Notes under the pieces: generated by a model | What the model was told of the DNA's origin: nothing | The model's database searches: none | Seen by the model: the letters and a program-made list of their open reading frames with translations, nothing else | Made by a program: the position numbers and the translations under genes | In this document: positions 1 through 16,472 of the stretch, piece after piece | Layout: each line of letters opens with the position of its first letter | Numbering within the stretch: the stretch's first letter is position 1 | Virus record (IMG/VR): IMGVR_UViG_2617270976_000017 | Span: 1-16,721 of that record | From: a virus | Lineage: Duplodnaviria; Heunggongvirae; Uroviricota; Caudoviricetes | Reading direction: 5' to 3' (one strand) | DNA: 16,721 nt

Positions 1-378
1 CCTGCTGACCATTGTCTGCATGATGTTCAGGATATGAGTACGATTAATCATCCCCGGGCTGACCTGAGCAAAGGGCAGTACGGCTGTGTCGGACAGGGCT
101 TACATATTGCCAAAAAACTGCTTCCGTATATCCCTAATAACGCGGGGATCCTGCTGGTACCATGCTGTCGTGGTGGTTCGGCATTCACCCAGGGCACGGA
201 GGGGACATTCAGCGAGTCCACGGGGGCCAGTCAGGATTCGGCTCGCTGGGGAGTGGGTAAGCCGTTATATCAGGATCTGCTTTTCCGCACGAAGGCAGCA
301 TTGCAGAAAAACCCGAAAAACGTTTTGCTGGCGATATGCTGGATGCAGGGGGAATTCGATATGACGAATGCCAGTTAG
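1..378 (+). CDS. 3' portion of a hypothetical prophage protein; reading frame is open from base 1, so probably 5'-truncated by the window edge
   Basis: Frame 1 has no stop from position 1 to TAG at 376-378; the ORF track starts it at ATG 34 only because that is the first Met. GC-rich like the phage backbone. No family recognised with confidence (a weak impression of an SGNH/esterase-like 'W-x-QGE-x-D' block, not verifiable here). Confidence 0.4.
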   Translation, partial: PADHCLHDVQDMSTINHPRADLSKGQYGCVGQGLHIAKKLLPYIPNNAGILLVPCCRGGSAFTQGTEGTFSESTGASQDSARWGVGKPLYQDLLFRTKAALQKNPKNVLLAICWMQGEFDMTNAS

Positions 379-587
379 TGCTGGTGAGCCTTGACGGGCT
401 GATCTCCTATGCAGCAAAGGTTCATCTCAAAGTAAGACGAACGCTATGACAAACCAAGATTCTATAGACCTATCTGATCTTCGTGGAATGGTCAGTTTTC
501 CAGACAAAAGGTAATCACCATAGTCGTATGGCTATGAATCTTGTTGCTGCAGATAAGCATTTTGTGATTGAAGTGGTCAAATCTCTC

Positions 588-644
588 AAATGCAGTAAAA
601 TGCAGTGCGCTATAATTCAATAACGGAGGGAGTAAGGAGAAGTC
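588..644 (+). promoter_or_regulatory. putative promoter/RBS region for the 645..1265 gene: tandem AAATGCAGT x2 (588-606), TATAAT (611-616), strong Shine-Dalgarno GGAGGG/AAGGAGA (625-640)
   Basis: Perfect -10 hexamer 29 nt upstream of ATG 645; double SD motif 5-15 nt upstream of the ATG; no convincing -35, so promoter call is weak. Confidence 0.3.
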
Positions 645-1265
645 ATGAAAGATCAAGATGTTAGGTTCGCGGTGCATCATAAGCTTTTGAAAGAATCGCA
701 TTTAGATCCAGACTGCCTTGTGGTCGATGAATTTTCCATATCCCTTGGCGCCAGTAGAGCAGACATTGCTGTAATAAATGGTGTTATACACGGGTACGAG
801 CTCAAAAGTGAATATGACTCTTTGGAGCGTTTGCCTCTTCAAATCAAGCATTATTCTTCTGTAATGGACAAGGTTACTCTTGTCGTAGCTGAGAAACACC
901 TTGAGGGAGCATTAAAGTTAATCCCAGGTTGGTGGGGCGTTAAAACGGTTTCTGTTGGGCCAAAAGGCGCCATTCTTATAAAGCACATGCGTGGAGAAAA
1001 GCTTAATCGAAACCATGACACATTGATGCTCGCTCAATTGCTTTGGAAAGATGAATGTATCGACGTACTTGAACGATGGGGCTATTCCAAAGGAATCAAA
1101 AGCAAGCCCCGATTTGAGTTATGGAATATTATTGCGGAAAATATTCCAATAGCGAATCTCAGGCTTGAAGTCAGAACAGCCTTAAAGAAACGCGTAGGCT
1201 GGAAAGTTAAGGCTTGGCAGGCTGAGTCTGCGCCAACCAATAAAGCTGTCTCACGACTAACGTAA
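645..1265 (+). CDS. hypothetical 206-aa protein with a PD-(D/E)xK-like nuclease signature (..RADIAVINGVIHGYELKSE..); accessory (moron) gene
   Basis: Long ORF with strong RBS; AT-richer than the flanking phage structural genes; Asp followed ~12 residues later by E-L-K in hydrophobic beta-strand-like context, as in restriction-endonuclease-fold proteins. Family assignment not possible without HMM search. Confidence 0.65.
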   Translation: MKDQDVRFAVHHKLLKESHLDPDCLVVDEFSISLGASRADIAVINGVIHGYELKSEYDSLERLPLQIKHYSSVMDKVTLVVAEKHLEGALKLIPGWWGVKTVSVGPKGAILIKHMRGEKLNRNHDTLMLAQLLWKDECIDVLERWGYSKGIKSKPRFELWNIIAENIPIANLRLEVRTALKKRVGWKVKAWQAESAPTNKAVSRLT

Positions 1266-2274
1266 TATGGTGCGTATGTGCAACTTTACGCCATTCTTTA
1301 GAGCCGCCAGATTTGTTAGCGCCTAATGATCTTTGGTAAATGTAATCATCCCCCCAACTAAATTTGGAGCCAAAGACTTGATACTCTGGCGAACTAACAA
1401 GGGTAGTACATAAGTTTTTAGTTTGGCCCCATCCATTTCCTTTAACTGCGGTACCTTTTACAAAGATCCATGAGGTATCGTTCGAATATCTCACTGAGAC
1501 ATACTGAGACATGAAGCGTGGGTCTACGCTCGTAATGGTAGAGCTAGCGGTGGGATAATCACTAAAACTTGGCGTTCTTCCATTGCTAAAATTCTGTACT
1601 ACGTACATCCAAAGATCGTATTCATGGCGCGGAATATGATGAACTTGATGTTGCGGTATCCCTGCCTGTGATGCCGGGTATGCGGTTGAAGATAAAATCA
1701 AGTTTCTCCACGGAGCTTGGCCTGATAATGTGTTGACCATGCTTAATGCTTGTTGTTTTAAACTATCAGTTGCGTTTTGAATATCTCCAAAATCAATGAT
1801 TACATCAATTAAACTAGGATGAATATTTAAGTGGTTAACCAGACTTGTGAATTGGTGCCATGTCTGGGGGGTGATAGATATAGCGAGCCCATTGATTAAG
1901 TTGCGTTGAACAGCATGTATATAGTTTGTTGAATATGCGGGAGAAACAACAGGGATAATTTCCTTACCATTTACTCTAGCATCTTGGATACACATATCTA
2001 GAGGATGATGGCGGCTCGAACCATGTTTATCTAAATATTTAACATCCAGCAAAACAGGACGATTGGCTTTCCAGGATGCCGCAAGGTTAATACCGAAGTC
2101 AGATAAGTAAGAACTCAAACTCTTCTTGTAGCATTCGTTTTCATAATCCCAGTCTATGTCTGGAATGGTAATGATCGGAGTAAAACCAGAGAGCGTAGTT
2201 TGATCTAAAAGCATCAGAGATTCATATTCAGCAGGCTTCCATTTCAGCTGTGGATAATATTGATGTTGACTCAT
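1207..2274 (-). CDS. hypothetical 355-aa protein, convergent to and overlapping the 3' end of 645..1265; accessory gene
   Basis: Long minus-strand ORF; ATG at 2274-2272 preceded by a perfect AAGGAG (complement of 2280-2285) with 5-nt spacing; same AT-rich composition as its neighbour. No recognisable lambda homolog. Confidence 0.65.
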   Translation of the reverse strand: MSQHQYYPQLKWKPAEYESLMLLDQTTLSGFTPIITIPDIDWDYENECYKKSLSSYLSDFGINLAASWKANRPVLLDVKYLDKHGSSRHHPLDMCIQDARVNGKEIIPVVSPAYSTNYIHAVQRNLINGLAISITPQTWHQFTSLVNHLNIHPSLIDVIIDFGDIQNATDSLKQQALSMVNTLSGQAPWRNLILSSTAYPASQAGIPQHQVHHIPRHEYDLWMYVVQNFSNGRTPSFSDYPTASSTITSVDPRFMSQYVSVRYSNDTSWIFVKGTAVKGNGWGQTKNLCTTLVSSPEYQVFGSKFSWGDDYIYQRSLGANKSGGSKEWRKVAHTHHITLVVRQLYWLAQTQPAKP

Positions 2275-2470
2275 TAAAACTCCTTAAAATCTTTACTTAT
2301 CCTAAGTATAGTGTTATGGCGTAACGCCAATTGTTTTTATACACTTGAAAACATTGGGAAAAGTTGAGCTATATCTAAATTTACAAAATTGGATGTTATA
2401 GAAATCGAGGTTTCAACTAGGCATGGAACTGCAAAATTTTTAATGCCTGCACGCGAAAGTCGTTGGCGGG

Positions 2471-2497
2471 TCCTTTCCGGTGATCCAGATCGTTACG
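2471..2497 (+). other. cosQ-like segment immediately upstream of cosN
   Basis: TCCTTTCCGGTGATCC...GTTACG matches my recollection of the last ~27 bases of the phage lambda genome (right end). Confidence 0.55.
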
Positions 2498-2509
2498 GGG
2501 CGGCGACCT
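2498..2509 (+). other. cosN: 12-nt cohesive-end sequence GGGCGGCGACCT
   Basis: Exact match to the lambda 12-nt cohesive end, followed by CTCGCGG(T)TTTTC-CTATTTATGAAAATTTT as at the lambda left end. Confidence 0.8.
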
Positions 2510-2684
2510 CGCGGTTTTTCACTATTTATGAAAATTTTTCAGGGAAAATCGTGTCGGTACTTCTCGAATATAACTTTTTGTTTTTTTTAATATTGCATTC
2601 ATAAATGTCCGACATGAAAGTGTCCGAAAATGCCTTTTTTTGGCGTTTTCATGTCGGGCCTTGTATTTGATAATGAGTTGTTCT
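2510..2684 (+). promoter_or_regulatory. cosB-like terminase binding region with three oppositely oriented core elements (TGTCGG at 2552-2557, CCGACA at 2609-2614, TGTCGG at 2652-2657) and an AT-rich segment between the first two
   Basis: Position between cosN and the Nu1 start, +/-/+ orientation and spacing (about +54, +111, +154 from cosN) mirror the lambda R3-I1-R2-R1 layout, but the element sequence differs from lambda's. Confidence 0.55.
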
Positions 2685-3233
2685 ATGAAGGTTAATAAAA
2701 AGAGGCTTGCCGAAATTTTTAACGTGGACCCGCGGACGATTGAACGCTGGCAGTCTCAGGGGCTCCCTTGCGTCTCCAAAGGCAGTAAGGGCATTGAATC
2801 TGTATTTGATACTGCCATGGCAATTCAGTGGTATGCGCAGAGGGAAACTGATATCGAAAACGAAAAGCTCCGCAAAGAACTGGCCGATTTGCGTGCGGCA
2901 GCGGAGTCAGATTTACAACCCGGCACCATTGACTATGAACGCTACCGGCTCACAAAAGCGCAGGCAGATGCGCAGGAACTGAAAAATGCCCGTGAAGACG
3001 GAGTGGTGCTGGAAACTGAACTATTTACCTTCATTCTGCAACGTGTGGCACAGGAGATTTCGGGGATACTTGTGCGTGTGCCGTTGACATTACAGCGTAA
3101 ATATCCGGACATTTCACCATCACACCTTGATGTGGTGAAAACTGAAATCGCGAAAGCCTCCAATGTTGCAGCTAAGGCCGGTGAAAACGTGGGCGGGTGG
3201 ATCGATGATTTCAGACGCACAGAAGGCAGCTAA
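2685..3233 (+). CDS. nu1: terminase small subunit (lambda Nu1 homolog)
   Basis: [12 protein letters not shown]...[12 protein letters not shown]...[49 protein letters not shown] aligns along its length with lambda gpNu1 as recalled. Start taken at ATG 2685 (the ORF track's 2640 uses an upstream TTG). Confidence 0.9.
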
Positions 3234-5133
3234 TGCAGCCGGTGCGATAGCTACAGGGCTTTTATCTCTCATTATTCCTGTTCCACTGACGACAGTTCAG
3301 TGGGCCAATAAACATTATTACCTTCCTAAAGAGTCGTCTTATACCCCGGGGCGGTGGGAAACACTGCCGTTTCAGGTTGGCATCATGAACTGTATGGGCA
3401 ACGATTTGATTCGCACTGTTAACCTGATTAAATCTGCCCGTGTTGGTTATACAAAGATGTTGCTGGGAGTGGAGGCTTATTTTATTGAGCATAAATCACG
3501 CAACAGCCTTCTTTTTCAGCCCACGGACTCAGCTGCTGAAGATTTTATGAAATCTCATGTTGAGCCAACGATAAGGGATGTTCCTGCATTGCTGGAGCTG
3601 GCTCCATGGTTCGGAAGAAAACACCGCGATAATACGCTCACCCTGAAGCGTTTTTCCTCCGGTGTGGGTTTCTGGTGTCTGGGGGGAGCGGCAGCAAAAA
3701 ACTACCGTGAAAAATCCGTGGATGTGGTTTGTTATGACGAGCTTTCCTCGTTCGAACCGGATGTTGAAAAAGAGGGTTCGCCAACCCTGCTGGGGGATAA
3801 ACGTATTGAGGGCTCTGTATGGCCAAAATCCATTCGCGGCTCGACGCCTAAAATCAAAGGCTCCTGCCAGATCGAAAAAGCCGCTAACGAGTCGGCACAT
3901 TTCATGCGTTTTTATGTGCCCTGTCCGCACTGTGGGGAGGAGCAGTATCTGAAATTTGGCGATGATGCCTCGCCTTTCGGTCTTAAGTGGGAGAAGAATA
4001 AGCCAGAAAGTGTTTTCTACCTTTGTGAGCATCATGGCTGTGTGATCCATCAGTCTGAGCTTGACCAGAGTAACGGGCGGTGGATCTGTGAAAACACGGG
4101 CATGTGGACTCGTGACGGTCTGACATTTTTCAGCGCCGCGGATAATGAAATTCCGCCGCCGCGCTCCATCACATTCCATATCTGGACGGCGTACAGTCCG
4201 TTCACCACCTGGGTACAGATTGTCTATGACTGGCTGGATGCACTGAAAGATCCCAACGGCCTGAAAACCTTTGTGAACACCACGCTGGGCGAGACCTGGG
4301 AAGAGGCCGTGGGCGAAAAACTCGATCACCAGGTGCTGATGGATAAGGTTGTGCGTTACACGGCTGCGGTGCCTTCCCGGGTGGTTTATCTGACGGCGGG
4401 CATTGACTCGCAGCGAAACCGTTTTGAGATGTATGTCTGGGGATGGGCTCCGGGAGAGGAAGCCTTTCTGGTGGATAAAATCATCATTATGGGGCGTCCC
4501 GATGAGGAAGAGACGCTGTTACGTGTGGATGTGGCGATCAACAAAAAATACCGCCATGCAGACGGAACCGAAATGACCATTTCCCGTGTCTGCTGGGACA
4601 CCGGGGGGATCGATGGCGAAATTGTCTATCAGAGGTCAAAAAAACACGGTGTTTTCCGGGTGCTGCCGGTAAAAGGTGCATCTGTTTATGGCAAGCCGGT
4701 GATCACCATGCCAAAAACCCGCAATCAGCGGGGCGTGTATCTGTGCGAAGTGGGGACGGACACCGCAAAAGAAATTCTCTATGCCCGTATGAAAGCCGAT
4801 CCCACGCCTGCGGATGAAGCCACGTCGTATGCCATCCGTTTTCCTGATGATCCGGAGATTTTTTCGCAGACAGAGGCGCAGCAACTGGTGGCGGAAGAGC
4901 TTGTGGAGAAGTGGGAAAAAGGAAAGATGCGTCTGCTGTGGGATAACAAAAAGCGGCGTAACGAAGCGCTGGACTGCCTGGTGTATGCCTACGCGGCATT
5001 ACGTGTGTCCGTGCAACGCTGGCAGCTTGATCTGGCTGTACTGGCAAAATCCCGGGAAGAAGAGACGACCCGGCCAACCCTTAAAGAACTGGCAGCGAAG
5101 CTGTCCGGAGGAGTGAATGGTTACAGTCGCTGA
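3205..5133 (+). CDS. A: terminase large subunit (lambda gpA homolog)
   Basis: Strong colinear similarity to lambda gpA ([24 protein letters not shown]..., [33 protein letters not shown]..., [10 protein letters not shown]...). Start placed at ATG 3205 (MISDAQ...), overlapping the Nu1 3' end as in lambda. Confidence 0.95.
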
Positions 5134-5323
5134 ACTGCAGGCGCTGCGTCAGGCGCGCCTTGATTTATTAACCGGTAAACGGGTGGTGTCTGTCCAGAAA
5201 GATGGTCGCAGAATTGAATATACGGCAGCTTCTCTGGATGAGCTTAACCGGGCGATCAATGATGCGGAGTCGGTACTGGGGACAACCCGCCGTCGCCGTC
5301 GTCCGCTGGGAGTGAGGTTATGA
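5117..5323 (+). CDS. W: head-tail joining / head completion protein (lambda gpW homolog, 68 aa)
   Basis: 68-aa ORF with LLTGKRVVSVQKDGRRIEYTA core matching lambda gpW; overlaps A stop and B start (ATGA) as in lambda. Confidence 0.9.
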   Translation: MVTVAELQALRQARLDLLTGKRVVSVQKDGRRIEYTAASLDELNRAINDAESVLGTTRRRRRPLGVRL

Positions 5324-7029
5324 AACGAACGCCTGTCCTGATTGATGTGAACGGCGTTCCGCTTCGGGAGAGCCTCAGCTACAACGGTGGCGGTGCAGGA
5401 TTTGGCGGGCAAATGGCAGAGTGGTTGCCACCCTCGCAGAGTGCCGATGCGGCCCTGCTGCCCGCGTTGCGTCTGGGGAATGCCCGTGCAGATGATCTGG
5501 TGCGCAATAACGGAATAGCGGCCAATGCGGTGGCCCTGCATAAGGATCACATTGTCGGGCATATGTTTCTGATTAGCTACCGTCCGAACTGGCGCTGGCT
5601 GGGGATGCGGGAGACCGCGGCAAAAAGTTTTGTCGATGAGGTGGAGGCGGCCTGGTCAGAATACGCAGAAGGGATGTTTGGTGAGATCGACGTGGAAGGG
5701 AAACGCACGTTTACGGAATTTATCCGTGAAGGTGTGTGCGTTCATGCGTTTAACGGCGAAATCTTTGTGCAGCCGGTCTGGGATACGGAGAGTACGCAAC
5801 TGTTTCGTACGCGTTTTAAAGCCGTGAGTCCGAAACGGGTGGACACGCCAGGACACGGTATCGGGAACCGTTTTCTGCGGGCCGGTGTGGAGGTTGATCG
5901 ATATGGCCGTGCCGTTGCGTACCATATCTGTGAGGATGATTTTCCTCGCTCCGGGAGTGGACGATGGGAACGGATCCCGCGTGAACTACCCACCGGGCGT
6001 CCGGCCATGCTGCATATTTTCGAGCCGGTGGAGGACGGGCAGACCCGTGGAGCCAATCAGTTTTACAGCGTTATGGAACGGCTGAAGATGCTCGATTCCC
6101 TGCAGGCAACACAGCTTCAGTCGGCCATAGTGAAGGCGATGTATGCAGCGACGATTGAAAGTGACCTTGATACCGAAAAGGCCTTTGAATATATCGCCGG
6201 TGCGCCGCAGGGGCAGAAGGATAATCCGCTTATTAATATTCTGGATAAGTTCTCCACCTGGTATGACACGAATAGCGTGACGCTGGGCGGTGTCAAAATT
6301 CCGCACCTTTTCCCCGGTGATGATCTGAAACTTCAGACCGCGCAGGATTCAGACAATGGATTTTCGGCGCTTGAACAGGCGCTGCTGCGGTATATCGCCG
6401 CCGGTCTTGGCGTTTCCTACGAACAGTTGTCCCGTGATTACTCGAAGGTCAGTTACTCAAGTGCCCGCGCATCCGCCAATGAGTCGTGGCGCTATTTTAT
6501 GGGGCGGCGAAAATTTATTGCGTCCCGGCTGGCCACGCAGATGTTTTCCTGCTGGCTGGAAGAGGCACTTCTTCGGGGGATTATTCGTCCGCCACGGGCA
6601 CGGTTTGATTTTTATCAGGCGCGATCAGCCTGGTCACGGGCTGAGTGGATTGGAGCCGGAAGAATGGCCATTGACGGGCTCAAGGAGGTTCAGGAATCAG
6701 TGATGCGCATTGAGGCCGGACTGAGCACGTATGAGAAAGAGCTGGCGCTGATGGGCGAGGATTATCAGGACATTTTCCGCCAGCAGGTCAGGGAATCTGC
6801 AGAGCGGGAAAAAGCCGGACTCTCACGTCCGGTGTGGATAGCGCAGGCGTATCAGCAGCAGATAGCGGAGAGTCGCAGGCCGGAAGAGGAGACAGTCGCG
6901 GATGAATATGACCAGCCGACGTCCGATATCACGAAGGATAAATGCAGCAAATGCCTGAGCGGCTGTAAGTTTCGCAATAACGTCGGCAACTTTGGCGGCT
7001 TCCTTTCCATTAACAAACTTTCGCAGTAA
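5320..7029 (+). CDS. B: portal protein (lambda gpB homolog) whose last codons are replaced by an in-frame fusion to the 3' end of tail gene L
   Basis: Residues 1-~525 colinear with lambda gpB (GGGAGFGGQ..., FEPVEDGQTRGANQFYSVME..., LRYIAAGLGVSYEQLSR...); the final 44 residues VADEYDQPTSDITKDKCSKCLSGCKFRNNVGNFGGFLSINKLSQ match the C-terminus of lambda gpL. Confidence 0.85.
   Translation: MKRTPVLIDVNGVPLRESLSYNGGGAGFGGQMAEWLPPSQSADAALLPALRLGNARADDLVRNNGIAANAVALHKDHIVGHMFLISYRPNWRWLGMRETAAKSFVDEVEAAWSEYAEGMFGEIDVEGKRTFTEFIREGVCVHAFNGEIFVQPVWDTESTQLFRTRFKAVSPKRVDTPGHGIGNRFLRAGVEVDRYGRAVAYHICEDDFPRSGSGRWERIPRELPTGRPAMLHIFEPVEDGQTRGANQFYSVMERLKMLDSLQATQLQSAIVKAMYAATIESDLDTEKAFEYIAGAPQGQKDNPLINILDKFSTWYDTNSVTLGGVKIPHLFPGDDLKLQTAQDSDNGFSALEQALLRYIAAGLGVSYEQLSRDYSKVSYSSARASANESWRYFMGRRKFIASRLATQMFSCWLEEALLRGIIRPPRARFDFYQARSAWSRAEWIGAGRMAIDGLKEVQESVMRIEAGLSTYEKELALMGEDYQDIFRQQVRESAEREKAGLSRPVWIAQAYQQQIAESRRPEEETVADEYDQPTSDITKDKCSKCLSGCKFRNNVGNFGGFLSINKLSQ
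6895..7029 (+). pseudogene. L: 3' remnant of tail tip gene L (last ~44 codons) fused to B
   Basis: C-terminal gpL sequence including the Cys-rich CSKCLSGC block; immediately followed by K as in lambda gene order L-K-I-J. Confidence 0.7.
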
Positions 7030-7033
7030 TCCC

Positions 7034-7777
7034 ATGACAGAGACAGAATCAGCGATTCTGGCGCACGCCCGGCGATGTGCGCCAGCGGAGTCGTGCGGCT
7101 TCGTGGTGAGAGCGCCGGAGGGGGAAAGATATTTCCCCGGCGTGAATATCTCCGGTGAGCCGGAGGATTATTTCCGTATGTCGCCGGAAGACTGGCTGCA
7201 GGCAGAAATGCAGGGTGAGATTGTGGCGCTGGTCCACAGCCACCACGGTGGTCTGCCCTGGCTGAGTGAGGCCGACCGGCGGCTGCAGGTGCAGAGTGAT
7301 TTGCCGTGGTGGCTGGTCTGCCGGGGGACGATTCACAAGTTCCGCTGTGTGCCGCATCTCACCGGGCGGCGCTTTGAGCACGGGGTGACGGACTGTTACA
7401 CGCTGTTCCGGGATGCTTATCATCTGGCGGGGATTGAGATGCCGGATTTTCATCGCGGGGATGACTGGTGGCGTCACGGTCAGAATCTCTATCTGGATAA
7501 TCTGGAAGCCACAGGGCTGTATCAGGTGCCGTTGTCATCAGCACAACCGGGCGATGTGCTGCTGTGCTGCTTTGGTTCATCGGTGCCGAATCATGCCGCC
7601 ATTTACTGTGGTGACGGCGAGCTGCTGCACCATATTCCTGAACAACTGAGCAAACGAGAGAGGTATACCGACAAATGGCAGCGACGCACACACTCCCTCT
7701 GGCGTCACCAGGCATGGCACGCATCTGCCTTTACGGGGATTTACAACGATTTGGCCGCCGCATCGATCTGCGTGTGA
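7034..7777 (+). CDS. K: tail assembly protein K (lambda gpK homolog)
   Basis: MTETESAILAHARRCAPAESCGFVV...HSHH... ORF; overlaps I by ~100 nt as K and I do in lambda. An internal Met at 7178 corresponds to the shorter classical K annotation. Confidence 0.85.
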   Translation: MTETESAILAHARRCAPAESCGFVVRAPEGERYFPGVNISGEPEDYFRMSPEDWLQAEMQGEIVALVHSHHGGLPWLSEADRRLQVQSDLPWWLVCRGTIHKFRCVPHLTGRRFEHGVTDCYTLFRDAYHLAGIEMPDFHRGDDWWRHGQNLYLDNLEATGLYQVPLSSAQPGDVLLCCFGSSVPNHAAIYCGDGELLHHIPEQLSKRERYTDKWQRRTHSLWRHQAWHASAFTGIYNDLAAASICV

Positions 7778-8316
7778 AAACGGGGGCCGAAGCCATCCGG
7801 GCGCTGGCCATGCAGATCCCGGCGTTTCGTCAGAAGCTGAGCGACGGCTGGTATCAGGTACGCATTGCCGGGCGTGATACAGGTGAAACGGAATTATCAG
7901 CCCGTCTTAATGAACCGCTGGCAAATGGTGCTGTGATCCATATCGTGCCGCGTCTGGCAGGAGCCAAAAGTGGCGGTGTGTTTCAGGCTGTGCTGGGGGC
8001 GGCTGTTATGGCGGTTGCTATATGGATGCCGGGGGTAGGAATTATGGCGAGTAATCTGCTGTTTTCTCTCGGTGCCAGTATGACGCTTGGCGGTGTTGCA
8101 CAGATGCTGGCCCCTAAACCCAAAACCCCCCGCACACAGACAACGGATAACGGCAAACAGAACACCTATTTCTCTTCACTGGATAACATGGTTGCCCAGG
8201 GCAATGTTCTGCCTGTTCTGTACGGTGAAATGCGCGTGGGGTCACGTGTGGCATCTCAGGAGATCAGCACGGCAGATGAAGGGGATGGTGGTCAGGTTGT
8301 GGTAATTGGGCGGTAA
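7675..8316 (+). CDS. I: tail assembly protein I (lambda gpI homolog)
   Basis: MAATHTLPLASPGMARICLYGDLQRFGRRIDLRVKTGAEAIRALA... and C-terminal ...NVLPVLYGEMRVGSRV.SQEISTADEGDGGQVVVIGR match lambda gpI. Confidence 0.9.
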   Translation: MAATHTLPLASPGMARICLYGDLQRFGRRIDLRVKTGAEAIRALAMQIPAFRQKLSDGWYQVRIAGRDTGETELSARLNEPLANGAVIHIVPRLAGAKSGGVFQAVLGAAVMAVAIWMPGVGIMASNLLFSLGASMTLGGVAQMLAPKPKTPRTQTTDNGKQNTYFSSLDNMVAQGNVLPVLYGEMRVGSRVASQEISTADEGDGGQVVVIGR

Positions 8317-8388
8317 TATTATTTACTCATGTTCTAACTGATTTAATATTTATATCGAACACTGATAATTATTCTATTGGTTAGCTAT

Positions 8389-8727
8389 ATGAACAAAACG
8401 ATTTTATTCTGCACGATTATTGCCTTAACAGGATGTAAATCTTTGGATTACGTAAAATCCGGAAAACCTGTAATGGAAGGTAATTCATTAAAAAATATTG
8501 ATGAATTGTCAGGCTGCATATCCAGACAATGGGCTGGTAATGGAACACCTATAACATCCCTTCCTATTGAGAATGGGGTAAGCCTTTTAGTTCCACAGGC
8601 TATGGGGGGATATGATGTTGTGCTTGATATCAAAAAAGCAGGAAATGGCAGTAGTTTTACTCTTTATGAACGTGTACCAGCATTAACGCCAAAAATTTTT
8701 GCTGATAGTGTTAATGCATGTAAATAA
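8389..8727 (+). CDS. small predicted lipoprotein (signal peptide MNKTILFCTIIALTG-C, lipobox LTGC); accessory gene inserted between I and J
   Basis: ORF with N-terminal hydrophobic segment ending in L-T-G-C; markedly AT-rich relative to flanking I and J; followed by a hairpin terminator. Start placed at ATG 8389; weak RBS. Confidence 0.6.
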   Translation: MNKTILFCTIIALTGCKSLDYVKSGKPVMEGNSLKNIDELSGCISRQWAGNGTPITSLPIENGVSLLVPQAMGGYDVVLDIKKAGNGSSFTLYERVPALTPKIFADSVNACK

Positions 8728-8750
8728 TAGTTAATCCTGCTGTAACTCAT

Positions 8751-8780
8751 GAGCCGCCTTTTGGGCGGCTTTGTTGTTTA
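8751..8780 (+). terminator. rho-independent terminator-like hairpin (GAGCCGCC-TTTT-GGGCGGCT) plus T-rich tail
   Basis: 8-bp GC-rich stem (one mismatch) with 4-nt loop followed by TTGTTGTTT, directly after the lipoprotein stop. Confidence 0.55.
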
Positions 8781-8793
8781 TGGAGTGTGAGGA

Positions 8794-10186
8794 ATGGGTA
8801 AAGGAAGCAGTAAGGGGCATACCCCGCGCGAAGCGAAGGACAACCTGAAATCCACGCAATTACTGAGTGTGATCGATGCCATCAGCGAAGGGCCGATTGA
8901 AGGTCCGGTGGATGGATTAAAAAGCGTGCTGCTGAACAGTACACCGGTGCTGGACAGTGAGGGGAATACCAACATCTCCGGTGTCACGGTGGTGTTCCGG
9001 GCAGGTGAGCAGGAGCAGACACCGCCGGAGGGATTTGAATCCTCCGGTTCCGAGACGGTGCTGGGTACGGAAGTGAAATACGACACGCCGATCACCCGGA
9101 CCATCACGTCTGCAAACATCGACCGTCTGCGCTTTACCTTCGGTGTGCAGGCTCTGGTGGAAACCACCTCAAAGGGGGACCGGAATCCGTCGGAAGTCCG
9201 CCTGCTGGTTCAGATACAACGTAACGGTGGCTGGGTGACGGAAAAAGACATCACCATTAAGGGCAAAACCACCTCGCAGTATCTGGCCTCGGTGGTGGTG
9301 GGTAACCTGCCGCCGCGCCCGTTTAATATCCGGATGCGCAGAATGACGCCGGACAGCACCACAGACCAGCTGCAGAACAAAACGCTCTGGTCGTCATACA
9401 CCGAAATCATCGATGTGAAACAGTGCTATCGGTGCCGGTATTGAGAATACGCCAGCAGGAATGCAGAGTCAGGTGCTGCTGGCGGCAGACAGGATTGCGA
9501 TGATTAATCCTGCGAATGGCAACACAAAGCCGATGTTTGTTGGTCAGGGCGATCAGATATTTATGAATGAAGTGTTCCTGAAATATCTGACGGCTCCCAC
9601 CATTACCAGCGGCGGTAATCCTCCGGCATTTTCCCTGACACCGGACGGGCGGCTGACGGCGAAAAATGCCGATATCAGCGGTAACGTGAATGCGAACTCC
9701 GGGACGCTCAACAACGTCACGATTAACGAGAACTGTCGGGTTCTGGGAAAATTGTCCGCGAACCAGATTGAAGGCGATCTCGTTAAAACAGTGGGCAAAG
9801 CTTTCCCCCGGGACTCCCGTGCACCGGAGCGGTGGCCATCAGGAACCATTACCGTCAGGGTTTATGACGATCAGCCGTTTGACCGGCAGATTGTTATTCC
9901 GGCGGTGGCATTCAGCGGCGCTAAACATGAGAAAGAGCATACTGATATTTACTCCTCATGCCGTCTGATAGTGCGGAAAAACGGTGCTGAAATTTATAAC
10001 CGTACCGCGCTGGATAATACGCTGATTTACAGTGGTGTTATTGATATGCCTGCCGGTCACGGTCACATGACACTGGAGTTTTCGGTGTCAGCATGGCTGG
10101 TAAATAACTGGTATCCCACAGCAAGTATCAGCGATTTGCTGGTTGTGGTGATGAAGAAAGCCACTGCAGGCATCACGATTAGCTGA
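8794..10186 (+). pseudogene. J: tail tip/host specificity gene J, disrupted: N-terminal ~210 codons (8794..9444) joined out of frame to the C-terminal ~240 codons (9461..10186); central ~2 kb missing
   Basis: 8794..9444 matches lambda gpJ residues 1-~212 nearly residue for residue and then stops (..VKQCYRCRY*); 9461..10186 in another frame matches the gpJ C-terminal region (..[32 protein letters not shown]..) with a divergent extreme C-terminus. Confidence 0.8.
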
Positions 10187-10204
10187 ATTTTATAACCCAG
10201 ATAC

Positions 10205-10230
10205 GGGCGCCAGAAATGGCGCCTTTTTTA
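10205..10230 (+). terminator. rho-independent terminator-like hairpin (GGGCGCC-AGAAAT-GGCGCC) followed by TTTTTTA
   Basis: 6/7-bp GC stem, 6-nt loop, T6 tract, just after the J stop. Confidence 0.55.
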
Positions 10231-10253
10231 TTGCAGAAAAGCGAGAGGTAATT

Positions 10254-10853
10254 ATGCGTAAATTATGTGCTGTTATTTTGTCCGCAGTAGTCTGGCAGGT
10301 CGCCGCTGCTACGCCAGCGAGTGCAGCAGAACATCAGTCCACGCTGAGCGCGGGGTATCTCCATGCCTCGACGAACGTTCCCGGTAGTGATGATCTGAAC
10401 GGGATTAACGTGAAATACCGTTATGAGTTTACGGACGCGCTGGGGCTGATTACGTCCTTCAGTTATGCCAATGCTGAGGATGAGCAAAAAACGCGCTACA
10501 GCGATACCCGCTGGCATGAAGATTCCGTGCGTAACCGCTGGTTCAGCGTGATGGCGGGGCCGTCTGTACGCGTGAATGAATGGTTCAGCGCGTATGCGAT
10601 GGTGGGTGTGGCTTACAGCCGTGTGTCGACTTTCTCCGGGGATTATCTCCGCGTAACTGACAACAAGGGGAAAACGCACGATGTGCTGACCGGAAGTGAT
10701 GACGGTCGCCACAGCAACACGTCTCTGGCGTGGGGGGCTGGCGTGCAGTTTAATCCGACCGAATCCGTGACCATTGACCTTGCTTATGAAGGTTCCGGTA
10801 GTGGCGACTGGCGAACGGATGCATTTATTGTTGGTATCGGATACCGTTTCTGA
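10254..10853 (+). CDS. lom: outer membrane beta-barrel protein Lom (Ail/Lom/PagC family)
   Basis: Signal-peptide-like N-terminus, alternating beta-strand pattern, C-terminal ...GIGYRF; position between J and stf as in lambda. Confidence 0.85.
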   Translation: MRKLCAVILSAVVWQVAAATPASAAEHQSTLSAGYLHASTNVPGSDDLNGINVKYRYEFTDALGLITSFSYANAEDEQKTRYSDTRWHEDSVRNRWFSVMAGPSVRVNEWFSAYAMVGVAYSRVSTFSGDYLRVTDNKGKTHDVLTGSDDGRHSNTSLAWGAGVQFNPTESVTIDLAYEGSGSGDWRTDAFIVGIGYRF

Positions 10854-10958
10854 CAACAGACGCCGATTTATCTTCTGTAAATATTGTTATGATACGCAGG
10901 TTCATCCACCTTATGGGGTGAACTGCGTTTGAGGAAACGTAAAGTTACACTGTCCTGA

Positions 10959-10990
10959 AGCCCGTGGCGTCACTGCTGCGGGCTTTTTTT
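10959..10990 (+). terminator. terminator-like stem (AGCCCG...CGGGCT) followed by T7 tract
   Basis: 6-bp stem with a long (14-nt) loop and TTTTTTT immediately downstream; loop is long, so call is weak. Confidence 0.4.
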
Positions 10991-11004
10991 ATTGGTGGAA
11001 AAGT

Positions 11005-13911
11005 ATGACAGTAAAAATTTCTGGCGTGCTTAAAGATGGCACAGGAAAACCAGTACAGAACTGCACCATTGTGCTGAAGGCCAGACGAACCAGCAGCACG
11101 GTGGTGGTGAACACGGTGGCCTCTGAAAATCCGGATGAAGCCGGACGTTACAGCATGGATGTTGAGCATGGTCAGTACAGCGTCACCCTGCTGGTTGAAG
11201 GTTTTCCGCCTTCACATGCCGGGACCATTACCGTCTATGAAGGTTCCAGACCAGGTACGCTGAATGATTTTCTCGGTGCCATGACGGAGGATGATGTCCG
11301 ACCGGAGGCACTGCGCCGCTTTGAGCAGATGGTAGAAGAGGTGTCACGTAACGCCTCCGCGGTTGCACAGAATACGGCAGCCGCGAAAAAATCAGTCAGC
11401 GATGCCAGTGCATCAGCCAGCGAGGCGGCAACTCATGCAACCGATGCTGCAGCCTCAGCACGTGCCGCCAGCACGTCAGCCGGACAGGCCGCGTCGTCGG
11501 CTCAGTCAGCGTCTTCCAGCGCAGGAACGGCATCGACAAAGGCCCGTGAAGCAGCAAAAAGTGCTGCTGCTGCAGAGTCATCAAAAAGCGCGGCAGCTAC
11601 CAGCGCCAGTGCCGCGAAAACGTCAGAAACGAATGCCGCAGCATCACAAAAATCGGCAGCCACTTCTGCATCCACAGCGACCACGAAGGCGTCAGAAGCT
11701 GCCACCTCGGCACGGGGTGCGGCGGCCTCAAAAGAGGCAGCGAAATCTTCAGAAACGAATGCATCATCAAGTGCCAGTAGTGCAGCTTCCTCGGCAACGG
11801 CGGCAGGAAATTCCGCGAAGGCGGCAAAAACGTCCGAGACGAACGCTAAGTCTTCTGAAACAGCAGCGGGACAGAGCGCCTCAGCTGCGGCAGGTTCAAA
11901 AACAGCGGCTGCATTATCTGCCAGTGCCGCGTCAACAAGTGCCGGGCAGGCCTCAGCCAGTGCCACCGCCGCCGGAAAATCGGCAGAAAGCGCCGCATCA
12001 TCCGCTTCAACAGCCACAACGAAGGCTGGCAAAGCCACTGAGCAAGCCACTGCAGCAGCGAGGTCTGCTTCTGCAGCAAAAACCTCTGAAACAAATGCAA
12101 AGACTTCAGCAGACAATGCTGCTTCCTCTAAGGCGGCAGCCGCATCGTCAGCCAGTTCAGCGGCGTCATCGGCATCATCTGCGTCTGCTTCAAAAGATGA
12201 GGCGACCAGACAAGCGTCAGCAGCGAAAGGTAGTGCCACGACAGCAACAACGAAAGCATCAGAGGCAGCTGGTAGTGCGACGGCGGCAGCTCAGAGCAAA
12301 AGTACGGCGGAATCCGCGGCAACGCGCGCCGAGACAGCAGCAAAACGGGCAGAGGATATTGCATCCGCCGTGGCGCTGGAGGATGCGAGCACGACGAAAA
12401 AGGGGATAGTACAGCTCAGCAGTGCGACCAACAGCACTTCCGAGTCACTGGCGGCAACGCCAAAAGCGGTTAAGGCGGTAATGGGTGAAACGAACAAGAA
12501 AGCGCCCTTAAATAGTCCTGCACTGACCGGAACGCCAACAACACCAACTGCGCGACAGGGAACGAATAATACCCAAATCGCAAGCACGGCTTATGTTATG
12601 GCTGCGATCGCTGCCCTCGTGGACTCGTCGCCTGACGCACTGAATACGCTGAACGAGCTGGCTGCGGCGTTGGGCAACGACCCGAATTTTGCGACCACCA
12701 TGACTAGCGCGCTTGCGGGTAAGCAACCGAAAGATGCCACCCTGACGGCGCTGGCCGGGCTTGCTACTGCGGCAGACAGGTTTCCGTATTTTACGGGGAA
12801 TGATGTTGCCAGTCTGGCAATCCTGACAAAAGTTGGGCGGGATATTCTTGCGAAATCGACCGTTGCCGCCGTTATCGAATACCTCGGTTTACAGGAAACG
12901 GTAAACAAGGCTGGTAACGCCGTTCAGCGTTCCGGCGATAAAATGACCGGAGAACTGAAAATTGGCACGGTGAATGCGCTGCGAATTTTCAATGATGCCT
13001 TCGGTCTTATTTTCCGTCGTTCAGAAGATTTTCTTCATTTCATTCCGACGGCTGAAGGACAAGGCGAAAACGGTGATATCGGCCCATTAAGGCCATTCGC
13101 TATAAATCTGAGAACAGGTGCTATATCTGTCAGCCACGGGGCCAAAATTGATGGTGGGCTGGCGCTTGGTACAGATAACGCACTGGGCGGTAATTCCATT
13201 ACTCTCGGAGATAACGACACTGGTATTAAACAGGGCGGCGACGGTGTCCTTTTATTCTATTCAAATGGACAACTGGCATTTGGGCTTCAACCCGCATCTG
13301 CTGATTTTTATAAGCGGGTTGCATATATTCATCAGGGAATAATTCCTGATGGAAGTGGCGCATTTGCAGACCAGTTGAATAATGCCACCGCGCCTTTTGT
13401 TCAGACGCAGTTTGCCTGGAATCCCACTCCTGGTGGTCATTACGTGCCGATAGTTAAGGGCTTGTCCATTCGCAATGGACAGGGCTATCCCGGCGCGGTC
13501 AGCTTTGGGTATTTACTGACAGAACAGTATGGATTTCCGGTTCCATGTATTCATATGCGTGGCGATGGAGGTAATGATGCTTTATGGTATTTTAACCCGA
13601 ACGATAAATCCTTTATTTCACCGGGTGCTCTTATTGCGGGTGGCGTCCGTTATAACACCGATGGAAATATATTTGGTGGGTGCTGGGGTTCAAACTTAAA
13701 TGATTACCTGAATAGTTCTTTTATCAGAAATGTGCGTCTGGGAGGCAGACGTTCTGACACATTATATCGCGGAGGACTTTGCGAACCAGGTAATGGTCAT
13801 GTGACAACAGGATTGCAAATTATTGGTGAGGTTGATGGAGATGACTGGATGGTGTCACGACCACTACAAAAATACATTTCTGGTAACTGGTATAACGTTG
13901 AACAGGCATAG
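11005..13911 (+). CDS. stf: side tail fibre protein (Stf family), 968 aa, with Ala/Ser-rich repetitive shaft
   Basis: N-terminus MTVKISGVLKDGTGKP.QNCTIVLKARRTSSTVV and ...YSVTLLVEGFPPSHAGTITVYE match the conserved Stf N-domain; long A/S-rich repeat region; C-terminal tip ...PLQKYISGNWYNVEQA. Confidence 0.9.
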   Translation: MTVKISGVLKDGTGKPVQNCTIVLKARRTSSTVVVNTVASENPDEAGRYSMDVEHGQYSVTLLVEGFPPSHAGTITVYEGSRPGTLNDFLGAMTEDDVRPEALRRFEQMVEEVSRNASAVAQNTAAAKKSVSDASASASEAATHATDAAASARAASTSAGQAASSAQSASSSAGTASTKAREAAKSAAAAESSKSAAATSASAAKTSETNAAASQKSAATSASTATTKASEAATSARGAAASKEAAKSSETNASSSASSAASSATAAGNSAKAAKTSETNAKSSETAAGQSASAAAGSKTAAALSASAASTSAGQASASATAAGKSAESAASSASTATTKAGKATEQATAAARSASAAKTSETNAKTSADNAASSKAAAASSASSAASSASSASASKDEATRQASAAKGSATTATTKASEAAGSATAAAQSKSTAESAATRAETAAKRAEDIASAVALEDASTTKKGIVQLSSATNSTSESLAATPKAVKAVMGETNKKAPLNSPALTGTPTTPTARQGTNNTQIASTAYVMAAIAALVDSSPDALNTLNELAAALGNDPNFATTMTSALAGKQPKDATLTALAGLATAADRFPYFTGNDVASLAILTKVGRDILAKSTVAAVIEYLGLQETVNKAGNAVQRSGDKMTGELKIGTVNALRIFNDAFGLIFRRSEDFLHFIPTAEGQGENGDIGPLRPFAINLRTGAISVSHGAKIDGGLALGTDNALGGNSITLGDNDTGIKQGGDGVLLFYSNGQLAFGLQPASADFYKRVAYIHQGIIPDGSGAFADQLNNATAPFVQTQFAWNPTPGGHYVPIVKGLSIRNGQGYPGAVSFGYLLTEQYGFPVPCIHMRGDGGNDALWYFNPNDKSFISPGALIAGGVRYNTDGNIFGGCWGSNLNDYLNSSFIRNVRLGGRRSDTLYRGGLCEPGNGHVTTGLQIIGEVDGDDWMVSRPLQKYISGNWYNVEQA
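11350..12370 (+). repeat. intragenic tandem-repeat region of stf encoding the Ala/Ser-rich shaft (recurring ..AAKTSETNA.. units)
   Basis: Repeated nucleotide blocks such as gcgaaaacgtcagaaacgaatgc / gcaaaaacgtccgagacgaacgc / gcaaaaacctctgaaacaaatgc recur at ~11615, ~11745, ~11825, ~12075. Confidence 0.6.
12872..12897 (+). other. 26-bp recombination (crossover) site of a Gin/Pin/Cin/Hin-type inversion system, inside stf
   Basis: TTATCGAATACCTCGGTTTACAGGAA closely resembles the gix/pix-type crossover sites as I recall them and is an inverted copy (22/26) of the site at 15951..15976. Confidence 0.65.
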
Positions 13912-13926
13912 CCATCAGGAGAATAT

Positions 13927-14454
13927 ATGCAACATCTGAAAAATATTACCGCCGGAAACCCCAAAACCATTGAGCAGTATCAGCTTACGAAAAAAGCTGG
14001 CGTTATCTGGCTATATACAGAAGACGGTAAAAACTGGTATGACGAATTAAAAAACTTTCAGGATGATACTTTAAAAATAGCTTATGACCAGAAGGGGATT
14101 ATTCGTTGTATTGAGAAAGACGTATCAATGCTTAACCCTGACGGGTTAAGTGTTGTTGAGTTACCGAATATAACAGCCAACCGTCGCGCCGATATCTCGG
14201 GAAACTGGAAGTTTCTGGATGGTAAAGTAGTAAAGCGGGAATATACAAAACAGGAACTGCAACAGCAGGCAGAGTTACAAAAAGCCGCTTTGCTTTCCGA
14301 AGCGGAGTCTGTGATTCAACCGCTGGAACGTGCTGTCAGACTGAATATGGCAACTGATGAGGAACGCACACGACTGGAATCATGGGAACGCTACAGCGTT
14401 ATGGTCAGCCGTGTGGATACTGCAAAGCCTGAATGGCCACAGAAACCAGAATAA
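13927..14454 (+). CDS. tfa: tail fibre assembly protein (Tfa family)
   Basis: 175-aa ORF directly after stf with good RBS (CAGGAGA); N-terminal half matches the conserved Tfa pattern and is paralogous to the inverted ORF at 14485..15018. Confidence 0.85.
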
Positions 14455-14465
14455 CAACAAATTAA

Positions 14466-14485
14466 GGCCCGTACGGGCCTTTTCT
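14466..14485. terminator. bidirectional terminator hairpin (GGCCCG-TA-CGGGCC) between the convergent tfa genes
   Basis: Perfect 6-bp GC stem with T-rich flanks on both strands, located between the stop codons of the two convergent tfa genes. Confidence 0.5.
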
Positions 14486-15018
14486 TATTCTGGTGGTTCC
14501 GGGAATGTTACAGGAAGAACCGAGGTATCAGTTGTCTCAACCTGTTGCACGTATCGCATCCAGTTCATCAGTTGCTGTCTGTCTGAATCAGTGATAATCC
14601 CCAAAGTAAGCTGTGTTTGCCAGAACTGCGTTTTTTCTCTGGCCTGCTGTAATAATATTTTTTTCTGGTTTTCCGTCTGTAGGCGCAACTCTTCTTCGGT
14701 ATATACACGTTTAATGACTGCGCCATCTTTAAACATCCATTTACCTGAGTCGTCAGCACGCCGGTTGGCGGTAATATCAGGAATCTCAACGACGCTATAA
14801 CCTTCAGGGTTAAGTGTGGAGGCATCTTTGGTTATGGCAACAATAATATTATTTTCATCGTAAACAATCTTTATGGTGTCTGGCTGAAAGTTTTTCACTT
14901 CCTCATACCAGTTTTTTCCGTCCTCAGAGTAAAGCCAGATAACTCCGTGTTTCTTTGTTAACTCATACTGTTCCAGTGTTTTAGCATTACCCGCTTTTAT
15001 GTTCTTTAAGTGCATCAT
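14485..15018 (-). CDS. tfa: tail fibre assembly protein, second copy in inverted orientation (Tfa')
   Basis: [45 protein letters not shown]... is clearly paralogous to the + strand Tfa ([45 protein letters not shown]...). Confidence 0.85.
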
Positions 15019-15019
15019 A

Positions 15020-15523
15020 TTAAACGCTCGCTACATTATACCAGGTGCCATTTATATACTTTTGAACGGGTCTGTAATAAACGCCCGCTATATTATCGGC
15101 AGAGTTAGACCCTGTATCCTGAACATTAATACCAGACAATACATGACCTGAAGGGCACTGGAAATTCCATGTTTGCCAGTTGTTCACTCCATAATATTGC
15201 TGTGAACCAAGTCGAACATCTTTCACATAACGGGAATCAAAGTTACCGTAATCCGAGGGGTTAACACGCCCTGTAATATTTATGGTTTTATTACTTTGAA
15301 TGCTTCCGGAGACAAAGCGCATAACATGGACGTTATTAGCATAAACATCCAGATTACCATCGCCATTTTGTTTAAAGCCCGTGTCATTATCACCCAATAC
15401 AATCGAATTACCGCCAAGAGCACTGGATGTTCCGATACCCAGTGCACCATTCAGTTGACCACCAGATAACGGCAGTGATAGAAACAGAAGCCACTGGAGC
15501 ACCTCAAAAACACCATCATACAC
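15020..15523 (-). CDS. stf: alternative side tail fibre C-terminal (receptor-binding) segment, inverted orientation (StfE-like fragment)
   Basis: Contains ..[22 protein letters not shown].. and C-terminal ..[16 protein letters not shown], paralogous to the stf tip (..ALGGNSITLGDNDTGIKQGGDG.. / ..PLQKYISGNWYNVEQA); stop abuts tfa' start. Confidence 0.75.
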
Positions 15524-15587
15524 TAAATCAGTAAGTTGGCAGCATCACCCACGGGCTGAACGATAAAAAATACCGCCATTTTTATAA

Positions 15588-15962
15588 TTAATCCAAAAAC
15601 TGAGCTGCAGGACAACTTCCTTCTCCCATATAAAAATGAATAATTAACGTTGATGCACCACTAATAGTTGCGTTATAGGCTCCGCTACTCCAGTTCCATC
15701 CAACTGCTTTATCATTCGCAACGGTGCTTCCTGTTTTCCCTAAGGCAAACGCACCAACATGACTTGCTTTTAATGTGATATCGGAGGAACCATCAAAAGC
15801 CACATTGCTTATTTTCCTGGCAGTTTTTAATTTTGCAGCTGTAGAAGCATTGCCGGATAGTTCACCAGAAAGGCCACCGCTGAATGTTTGTCGATTAGTC
15901 CAGGTATTCGCTGTACTGAGTAACGGTATTTTCTCCCCGCTTGTGCCGAGTTCTCGTAAACC
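15588..15962 (-). pseudogene. proximal part of the alternative stf variable segment, in frame with the crossover site but separated from the distal part (15020..15523) by stops in all frames
   Basis: Reading the minus strand from the crossover site at 15962 gives an open frame (GLRELGTSGEKIPLL...GSCPAAQFLD) ending at TAA 15588-15590; the downstream tip ORF is in a different frame. Confidence 0.45.
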
Positions 15963-15976
15963 GAGGTTTTAGATAA
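15951..15976 (+). other. second 26-bp crossover site, inverted relative to 12872..12897
   Basis: TTCTCGTAAACCGAGGTTTTAGATAA; its reverse complement TTATCTAAAACCTCGGTTTACGAGAA matches the stf-internal site at 22/26 positions with an identical central ACCTCGGTTTAC core. Confidence 0.65.
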
Positions 15977-16030
15977 TGGCGGTTTCTGGCCTGCATGGCA
16001 TGATTTGTGCTTTTGGACGGGAGATTCAGC

Positions 16031-16436
16031 GTGCTGATTGGCTATGTAAGGGTATCAACAAATGACCAGAATACAGATCTGCAACGAAACGCTCTTGTTT
16101 GTGCAGGATATGAACAAATATTTGAAGATAAATTAAGCGGAACAAGGACAGGCCGACCTGGATTAAAACGTGCTTTAAAGCGCCTTCAAAAAGGTGACGC
16201 ACTGGTTGTCTGAAAACTGGACTGACTGGTTCACTGTATGCGGCATCTTGTCGTGCTGGTGGTGGAAGCCTAGAAAAAGTATCGGGTGTTGCTGAACCGT
16301 GTTGATACATCAACTGCACCTGATATTGAGTGGCCTACGAACCCTGTCAGGGAGTAATCATTGGGATTATGCCGCAGCACGTCTTAAGCAAGAACGTGCT
16401 GCGGTTGGATGGTGAACTTTCGATAGTGCGAGTATT
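16031..16436 (+). pseudogene. pin: Pin/Gin/Cin/Hin-family serine DNA invertase, inactivated (first ~60 codons intact, then multiple in-frame stops)
   Basis: VLIGYVRVSTNDQNTDLQRNALVCAGYEQIFEDKLSGTRTGRPGLKRALKRLQKGDALVV matches the invertase N-terminus including the catalytic Ser context; TGA at 16211-16213 falls where a Trp is expected, followed by further stops while residual similarity (..MRHLVVLVVE.., ..RVDTST..) persists. 3' end approximate. Confidence 0.65.
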
Positions 16437-16472
16437 GAATGATTTCCAGCCGTTACCGATTTTACGTGTTAA

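Follow-up and report, generated by a model that had tools for sequence, protein, structure and literature searches.

The window analysed here is the whole 16,721-nucleotide (nt) stretch of virus DNA held in IMG/VR as record IMGVR_UViG_2617270976_000017, which corresponds to positions 3-16,723 of contig JNQT01000033.1 in the Escherichia coli draft assembly GCA_000704325.1. It appears to contain the late half of a defective lambdoid prophage, with regulatory and lysis genes of the Qin type and a packaging module of the phage 21 type. Gene order was read from a listing of open reading frames (ORFs) and from Pfam, PHROGs, and PADLOC scans of the window, and the main references were annotated phage 21 (OL657228.1) and the apparently complete prophage of E. 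coli DA33133 (locus L015). All head and tail genes are present in the DA33133 prophage, together with the Qin-type genes dicB, ydfABC, rem, hokD, class II holin, YdfR, and rrrQ. The window keeps the collinearity of a lambdoid late operon, its Pfam families following one another in lambda order. The contig starts inside a prophage gene, so that the early half of the prophage (integrase, immunity, and replication) lies on another contig. With regard to chromosomal integration, the source is a 53-kb genomic contig, of which the comparison covered the part up to position 17,031, and close relatives are chromosomal prophages adjoining ompW/yciE-trp. Coordinates below are those of the window, and features lie on its plus strand unless the minus strand is stated.

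A complete cos site of the phage 21 type, recognized by alignment to the annotated phage 21 cos (OL657228.1), is located at 2468-2663, immediately upstream of the terminase genes. Its cosQ (2468-2474; GGGTCCT) is a heptamer identical to that of phage 21, as are cosN (2498-2509; GGGCGGCGACCT) and the cosB elements R3 (2547-2562), I1 (2571-2583), and R1 (2647-2663). The single mismatch across the cosQ-cosN-cosB arrangement is found in R2 (2604-2619). Two differences from the DA33133 prophage were observed in this region, one at 2640 between R2 and R1, and another at 2676 that turns the annotated Nu1 ribosome-binding site GGGT into GAGT.

The small terminase subunit (gp1, the lambda Nu1 homologue; 2685-3233; Pfam Phage_Nu1, 2.6e-81) is full length at 182 amino acids (aa), of which 179 are identical to those of phage 21 (three substitutions). 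The large subunit (gp2, the lambda A homologue; 3205-5133; GpA_ATPase, 9e-57; GpA_nuclease, 5e-71) is likewise full length and shares 634 of its 642 residues with phage 21 (eight substitutions), and the head completion protein (gp3, the lambda W homologue; 5117-5323; gpW, 1.2e-22) differs from its phage 21 counterpart by one substitution (67/68 identical). The overlaps between these genes are those of phage 21 (29 bp for Nu1/A, 17 bp for A/W, and 4 bp for W/B), and the whole block from cos through the portal gene is collinear with phage 21 at 97.5% DNA identity. Judged by their sequences, cos and terminase look fully functional.

The portal gene leads directly into the scar of a large deletion. 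A fusion ORF of 569 aa at 5320-7029 joins portal (gp4/B) and tail-tip protein L in frame (Phage_portal_2, 4e-100, aa 29-397; Phage_tail_L, 1.8e-12, aa 525-567), with portal codons 1-525 of 530 followed, from the junction at 6894/6895 on, by the final 44 codons of L. The L part matches phage 21 L 189-232 plus its stop at 45/45 positions. The deletion, here called D2, measures 9,793 bp (phage 21 4399-14180; L015 24436-34228), has a 2-bp microhomology (CA) at its junction, and runs from portal codon 526 through C, Nu3, D, E, FI, FII, Z, U, V, G, T, H, and M to L codon 188. None of the C-to-M genes was found in the window by the ORF listing, Pfam, or the comparison with phage 21. The fusion was also recovered in a contig (L005) of an independent Logan assembly (run SRR1186598), and the exact fusion protein is present in only two contigs of a large assembly collection.

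Tail-tip assembly protein K (7034-7777; Prok-JAB and NLPC_P60) is full length at 247 aa, equal in length to phage 21 K and identical to it at 235/247 positions (12 substitutions). Tail-tip assembly protein I (7675-8316; Lambda_tail_I, 7.5e-24) is 213 aa long, compared with 223 aa in phage 21, and aligns over its full length with an in-frame difference of 10 codons. Its ATG at 7675 aligns with the phage 21 start, whereas automated calls use 7714 (200 aa in DA33133 and in L004). The remnant of L together with K and I shares 89.6% DNA identity with phage 21, and no internal stops occur in Nu1, A, W, K, or I. The central tail fibre gene J is split into an N-terminal fragment of 211 aa that ends in a frameshift (8794-9444; FNIII-A_GpJ, 3.7e-42) and a C-terminal fragment in a different frame (9461-10186; Phage_Tail_Tip, 1.3e-16; Ig_GpJ_C, 3.6e-38), the latter comprising the tail tip and receptor-binding domain. 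The split is due to deletion D3, which removes 2,087 bp (relative to L015) from within J and is out of frame. Its junction at 9427-9428 has the microhomology TA, and window 8763-9428 corresponds to phage 21 15662-16327 before the alignment skips to 18413.

A preliminary description of this DNA, made from the sequence alone, had presented the packaging and tail-tip genes as kept intact while the capsid and tail-shaft genes were gone. The intact cos, the full-length Nu1, A, W, K, and I with their preserved overlaps (I being an in-frame variant), and the absence of capsid, scaffold, decoration, tube, and tape-measure genes all agree with our comparison. The tail-tip module as a whole is not intact, since M has been lost, only 44 codons of L remain, and J is in two pieces. 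The gene calls of that description were right, but the portal-L fusion at 5320-7029, the broken J, and the deletion of the lysis cassette had been overlooked.

The lysis cassette was removed by a third deletion, D1, of 3,032 bp. It cuts a SASA-family carbohydrate esterase gene, of which only a 5′ fragment remains (1-378; SASA, 2.9e-9), and the rest of the esterase gene, the holin, YdfR, lysozyme, and Rz are gone. Window 1-377 corresponds to L015 14510-14886 and then skips to 17913, with a 6-bp microhomology (CAGTTA) at 372-377. After D1, the element is unable to lyse its host by its own means. The genes for lytic growth that have been lost thus comprise the lysis cassette, C to M with the bulk of L, and a central part of J, and a tail-fibre invertase gene is truncated besides.

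Breakpoints were mapped by BLAST of the window against L015 of DA33133, and against phage 21. Four segments account for the alignment with L015: window 1-377 (L015 14510-14886; 99.7% identity), 372-6894 (L015 17913-24435; 99.89%, with seven mismatches and no gaps), 6893-9428 (L015 34227-36762; 95.5%), and 9427-9807 (L015 38848-39228; 86.6%). The junctions are located at 377/378 (D1), 6894/6895 (D2), and 9428/9429 (D3), and the total loss amounts to about 14.9 kb. The junction microhomologies of 6, 2, and 2 bp (CAGTTA, CA, and TA) are what illegitimate recombination leaves behind, as opposed to homologous exchange or mis-joins by an assembler. Homologous recombination between repeats was considered as the cause of the deletions and rejected, as the overlaps are just 2-6 bp.

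All three junctions are private to this strain as far as the searched collections extend. Queries of 200-300 bp centred on the D1, D2, and D3 junctions, with coverage of both sides required, had no match in 5,426 complete E. coli genomes (0/5,426). A 24-mer spanning D2 (GAAGAGGAGACAGTCGCGGATGAA) is absent from the GTDB species representatives, as expected of a strain-specific deletion. Of the same 5,426 genomes, 1,874 have the portal-protease junction in its undeleted form, and in 1,826 the cos-to-portal block (window 2460-6894) is covered to at least 80%.

The deletions also appear to be young. Over the 6.5 kb shared with DA33133 between D1 and D2, only seven differences were found. A and W have none, Nu1 carries a single synonymous change, the portal gene has two non-synonymous changes plus a synonymous one, a cII-like gene upstream of cos has one that is non-synonymous, and the remaining two are intergenic. 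With so few changes in Nu1, A, and W, the ratio of non-synonymous to synonymous substitution rates (dN/dS) has no power. The dN/dS of terminase relative to phage 21 was rejected as a measure, as it reports only on selection during the element's former life as a functional phage. Virtually no time separates the element from its common ancestor with a complete prophage, which is why the ORFs are intact, and we infer that the deletions are recent and neutral.

Relatives of the prophage have decayed along different paths, and terminase is lost along some of them and retained along others. In the E100341 prophage, the first ~220 bp of A are joined to the 3′ end of lom, with most of terminase, the heads, and the tails lost and the lysis genes kept. 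The AST198 prophage has kept terminase and heads, with V joined to J, while Qin of E. coli K-12 has kept cosN and nohA, followed by stfQ-tfaQ-pinQ. In a simulation in which three non-overlapping deletions of the observed sizes were placed at random in a 30-kb late region, the stretch from cosQ through A was untouched in 24% of trials. Selection is not needed to explain a retention that has a probability of about 0.24 by chance, and we infer that cos and terminase have been retained without function. The selective retention proposed in the preliminary description thus falls within chance expectation, and its fallback suggestion of a recent deletion is the one that held, given three strain-private microhomology deletions, 99.9% identity to an intact prophage, and relatives with different losses.

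The element is very probably an ordinary, recently deleted defective lambdoid prophage in which cos and terminase survive by chance and not through a satellite lifestyle. This reading builds on the gene content, the breakpoints and their microhomologies, the absence of the junctions from other genomes, and the near-identity to an intact prophage. Relative to a structurally complete relative, at least three independent deletions by illegitimate recombination would have occurred: one of ~3.0 kb that took the 3′ end of the esterase gene, the holin, YdfR, lysozyme, and Rz; one of ~9.8 kb from the last five portal codons through M and most of L; and one of ~2.1 kb inside J that caused a frameshift, with truncation of the tail-fibre invertase in addition. 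The deletions would have missed cos, Nu1, A, W, K, and I by chance, and the events would be too recent for point mutations to have accumulated in these genes. Unaided, such an element is unable to lyse the cell or to build heads or tails.

Several observations weigh against it. The early half is on a different contig, and the element may have kept the capacity for excision and replication; with a cos and terminase that look intact, occasional packaging with the assistance of a helper is possible. The D2 fusion is in frame, for which the chance is 1 in 3, and 99% of the portal is kept, both of which we take as coincidence. Identity to DA33133 is 99.9% to the left of D2 (372-6894) and 95.5% to the right of it (6893-9428), which suggests that the head and tail halves differ in history. 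Given the lower identity on the right, recombination between two different prophages, instead of within one, could have produced D2, with mosaicism as the alternative.

An alternative that we regard as unlikely is opportunistic packaging in trans, in which the decaying prophage would be excised, replicated, and packaged in the heads and tails of a co-resident lambdoid prophage (a "defective prophage pool"). The intact cosQ, cosN, cosB, and terminase are consistent with it, and matching helpers are plausible in view of the 1,826 of 5,426 genomes that hold most of the cos-to-portal block. The process would need excision and replication genes, which lie beyond the start of the contig. About 14.9 kb are also gone from a genome of roughly 45-50 kb, so that the cos-to-cos length probably lies close to the minimum for packaging, or beneath it. 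For lambda-type terminases, that minimum is reportedly about 78% of the genome length, according to the chromosome-length work of Feiss. Even then, trans-packaging would be an incidental property and no sign of selection. There is a precedent in the prophages Sp4, Sp9, Sp15, and Sp6 of E. coli O157 Sakai (PMC2669165), and trans-packaging here would be an instance of this known defective-prophage-pool effect and not a novel way of life; that lambdoid prophages with defective heads can be packaged with the aid of a helper has been known since 2009. If it does occur, the morons of the element (a cII/beta-like pair, a lipoprotein gene, and lom) would move between strains.

An adapted satellite, in which cos and terminase, and perhaps the portal, were selectively kept for the parasitism of a helper's capsid and tail proteins, appears very improbable. 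Its sole support is the intact cos, Nu1, A, and W and the near-complete portal alongside the loss of the capsid and tail-shaft genes, the pattern from which the preliminary description had raised a satellite-like lifestyle. Satellites form conserved families, whereas this architecture is private to one strain, and the lack of divergence since the intact relative leaves maintenance by selection unsupported. Terminase has been lost just as readily in relatives. Known cos satellites, namely P4 and the Rpp-type phage-inducible chromosomal islands (PICIs), have cos without terminase genes, plus Rpp or psu/sid/delta, none of which is present here, and the capsid-forming PICIs (cf-PICIs) encode their own capsid, which is missing. 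The lesions in the lysis cassette, J, and the invertase gene are unrelated to such a lifestyle and point to general decay. The satellite reading, if true, would have meant a new class, that of a terminase-carrying lambdoid satellite.

It is about equally hard to believe that the deletions are an assembly artefact, in which a short-read assembler produced chimeras among similar prophages of one genome. The source is a draft, and its contig starts in a gene that is repeated among lambdoid prophages. The junctions, however, are located at microhomologies of 2-6 bp and not within long shared repeats, hundreds of bases of unique and collinear sequence flank each of them, and the D2 fusion was recovered independently in the Logan assembly of SRR1186598. 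An artefact was rejected on the basis of the junction microhomology and the independent assembly. Least credible of all is a "portal-and-terminase" parasite whose fusion portal would nucleate proheads from helper capsid and scaffold proteins, with its own terminase docking only there and achieving private packaging without a capsid gene; to our knowledge, no such satellite strategy has been described.

With the deleted-prophage explanation preferred, the value of the window is that of a clean case of early prophage decay, with three private microhomology deletions on sequence that still shares 99.9% identity with an intact prophage. A further lesson is that intact-looking ORFs beside a deletion are uninformative on selection when no time has elapsed.

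Between D1 and cos lie two convergent genes that overlap by 59 bp. The first encodes a P4 cII-like ("sce7726 family") moron protein of 206 aa (645-1265; PADLOC cll, 4.3e-31; Pfam Phage_P4_cII; phrog_984), and the second, on the minus strand, encodes a Beta-family protein of 355 aa (1207-2274; Pfam Beta_protein, 8.2e-56; PADLOC PD-Lambda-2_C, 4.4e-32, and beta, 3.5e-10). The pair appears related to the P4 gop-beta-cII and PD-Lambda-2 defence systems, with two genes and no third partner. The cII-like gene is conserved and occupies an equivalent place in the DA33133, E100341, and AST198 prophages. Since the pair is present between Rz and cos in ordinary lambdoid prophages as well, it counts as a moron and does not mark a satellite. 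A further moron, a low-GC (guanine-cytosine) lipoprotein gene between I and J (8389-8727; MNKTILFCTIIALTGC with a lipobox; phrog_914 of unknown function, 8e-33), stands outside the packaging and tail module. It is also present in the intact DA33133 prophage, and its product could act in superinfection exclusion or receptor masking.

Downstream of J are lom (10254-10853; Ail_Lom, 4e-124), the side tail fibre gene stf (11005-13911; phage_tail_N, 1.4e-69), and the tail fibre assembly gene tfa (13927-14454; Caudo_TAP, 7.8e-35). Strong AT skew (0.38) and short internal repeats were observed at 11500-12500 inside stf, probably a repetitive shaft region. The remnant of a Pin/Gin-type invertible tail-fibre cassette spans 14485-16213. 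It consists of tfa′ (14485-15018, minus strand; Caudo_TAP, 6e-32), an alternative stf C-terminus (15020-15523, minus strand; phrog_454 tail fibre, 1e-74), and the N-terminal ~60 aa of a DNA invertase (16007-16213; phrog_125, profile positions 20-80 of 254), which is labelled a partial recombinase in E100341. The tail-fibre switch is presumably frozen by the truncation of the invertase. A weak 40-nt inverted repeat was noted at 13859-13898 and 15033-15072. Two small ORFs in the window are probably non-coding and gave no informative match in the Pfam, PHROGs, or PADLOC scans.

The right prophage end carries a DinI-family gene (16473-16721, minus strand; Pfam DinI), and within 16260-16721 a 3′ fragment of tfa directly abuts it. 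An identical DinI protein adjoins btsS/yehU at a prophage end in other genomes inspected. In one relative (L001), a gene for an S-adenosylmethionine (SAM) methyltransferase is sandwiched by two copies of the window's right-end tfa fragment, and genomes rich in insertion sequences with the same DinI (L006-L013) have ipaH effector genes nearby. These layouts suggest that the right prophage end has been rearranged repeatedly.

Among known systems, phage 21 (OL657228.1, M81255) is the closest match for the packaging module, with cos and gp1-gp4 collinear at 97.5% DNA identity and the cos subsites conserved. Phage 21 is complete, whereas the window lacks its positions 4399-14180 and 16328-18412, and the window's genes upstream of cos, from 2460 leftwards, are unlike those of phage 21.

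Satellites such as the PICIs EcCICFT073 and EcCIEDL933 and phage P4 have a cos for a lambda- or P2-type terminase and obtain virion parts from a helper. Rpp-type PICIs and P4 differ from the window in that they encode no terminase and possess dedicated genes for hijacking (Rpp; psu/sid/delta) as well as integrase and replication modules of their own. The Rpp-type PICIs of E. coli combine Rpp with a cos of their own that differs in cosB, and depend on the helper's TerS and TerL (PMC6739421), while P4 and some Staphylococcus aureus pathogenicity islands (SaPIs) simply carry the helper's cos (bioRxiv 10.1101/2022.09.08.507074). The cf-PICI EcCIEDL933 encodes its own capsid, protease, portal, connectors, HNH, TerS, and TerL, and no tail genes (bioRxiv 10.1101/2022.09.08.507074). 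Compared with cos-type PICIs like EcCICFT073, the window encodes TerS, TerL, a portal fragment, K, I, J fragments, stf, and tfa, and no Rpp-like extra ORF was found in 2471-8316, where all genes are phage 21 homologues. Cos-type PICIs are about 10-15 kb in size. Compared with cf-PICIs, the window is without capsid, protease, and connector (FII) genes, and its tail-tip and fibre genes are present. No psu/sid/delta or alpha primase was found in the window, and the cII- and beta-like genes are its only matches to P4, both of the accessory (defence) kind. No satellite function of the PICI or P4 type was named by the Pfam, PHROGs, or PADLOC scans of the window, and the architecture is not a recurrent one in the 5,426 E. 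coli genomes and the GTDB representatives, from which its junctions are absent.

The head-defective lambdoid prophages Sp4, Sp6, Sp9, and Sp15 of O157 Sakai resemble the window in their morphogenetic lesions and mostly intact terminase and cos (PMC2669165). They were packaged, and some transferred, through complementation by other prophages; Sp4, which has no intact terminase, was still packaged, most likely by the Sp14 terminase in its authors' inference, the two having identical cos (PMC2669165). Excision and replication were shown experimentally for the Sakai prophages, whereas the window is known from sequence alone and its deletions are larger.

Qin of K-12 is also a defective lambdoid prophage in which an internal morphogenetic deletion left cos and a Nu1 homologue beside tail-fibre remnants, and DLP12 is a similar cryptic prophage. 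In Qin, cosN (GGGCGGCGACCT) is kept, with nohA, directly before stfQ, tfaQ, and pinQ. Qin differs in having also lost the large terminase subunit, W, portal, K, I, J, and lom and in retaining its lysis genes, and its cos-nohA region is only 66% identical to that of the window. The window is younger and less eroded, and the lysis genes are what it has lost instead.

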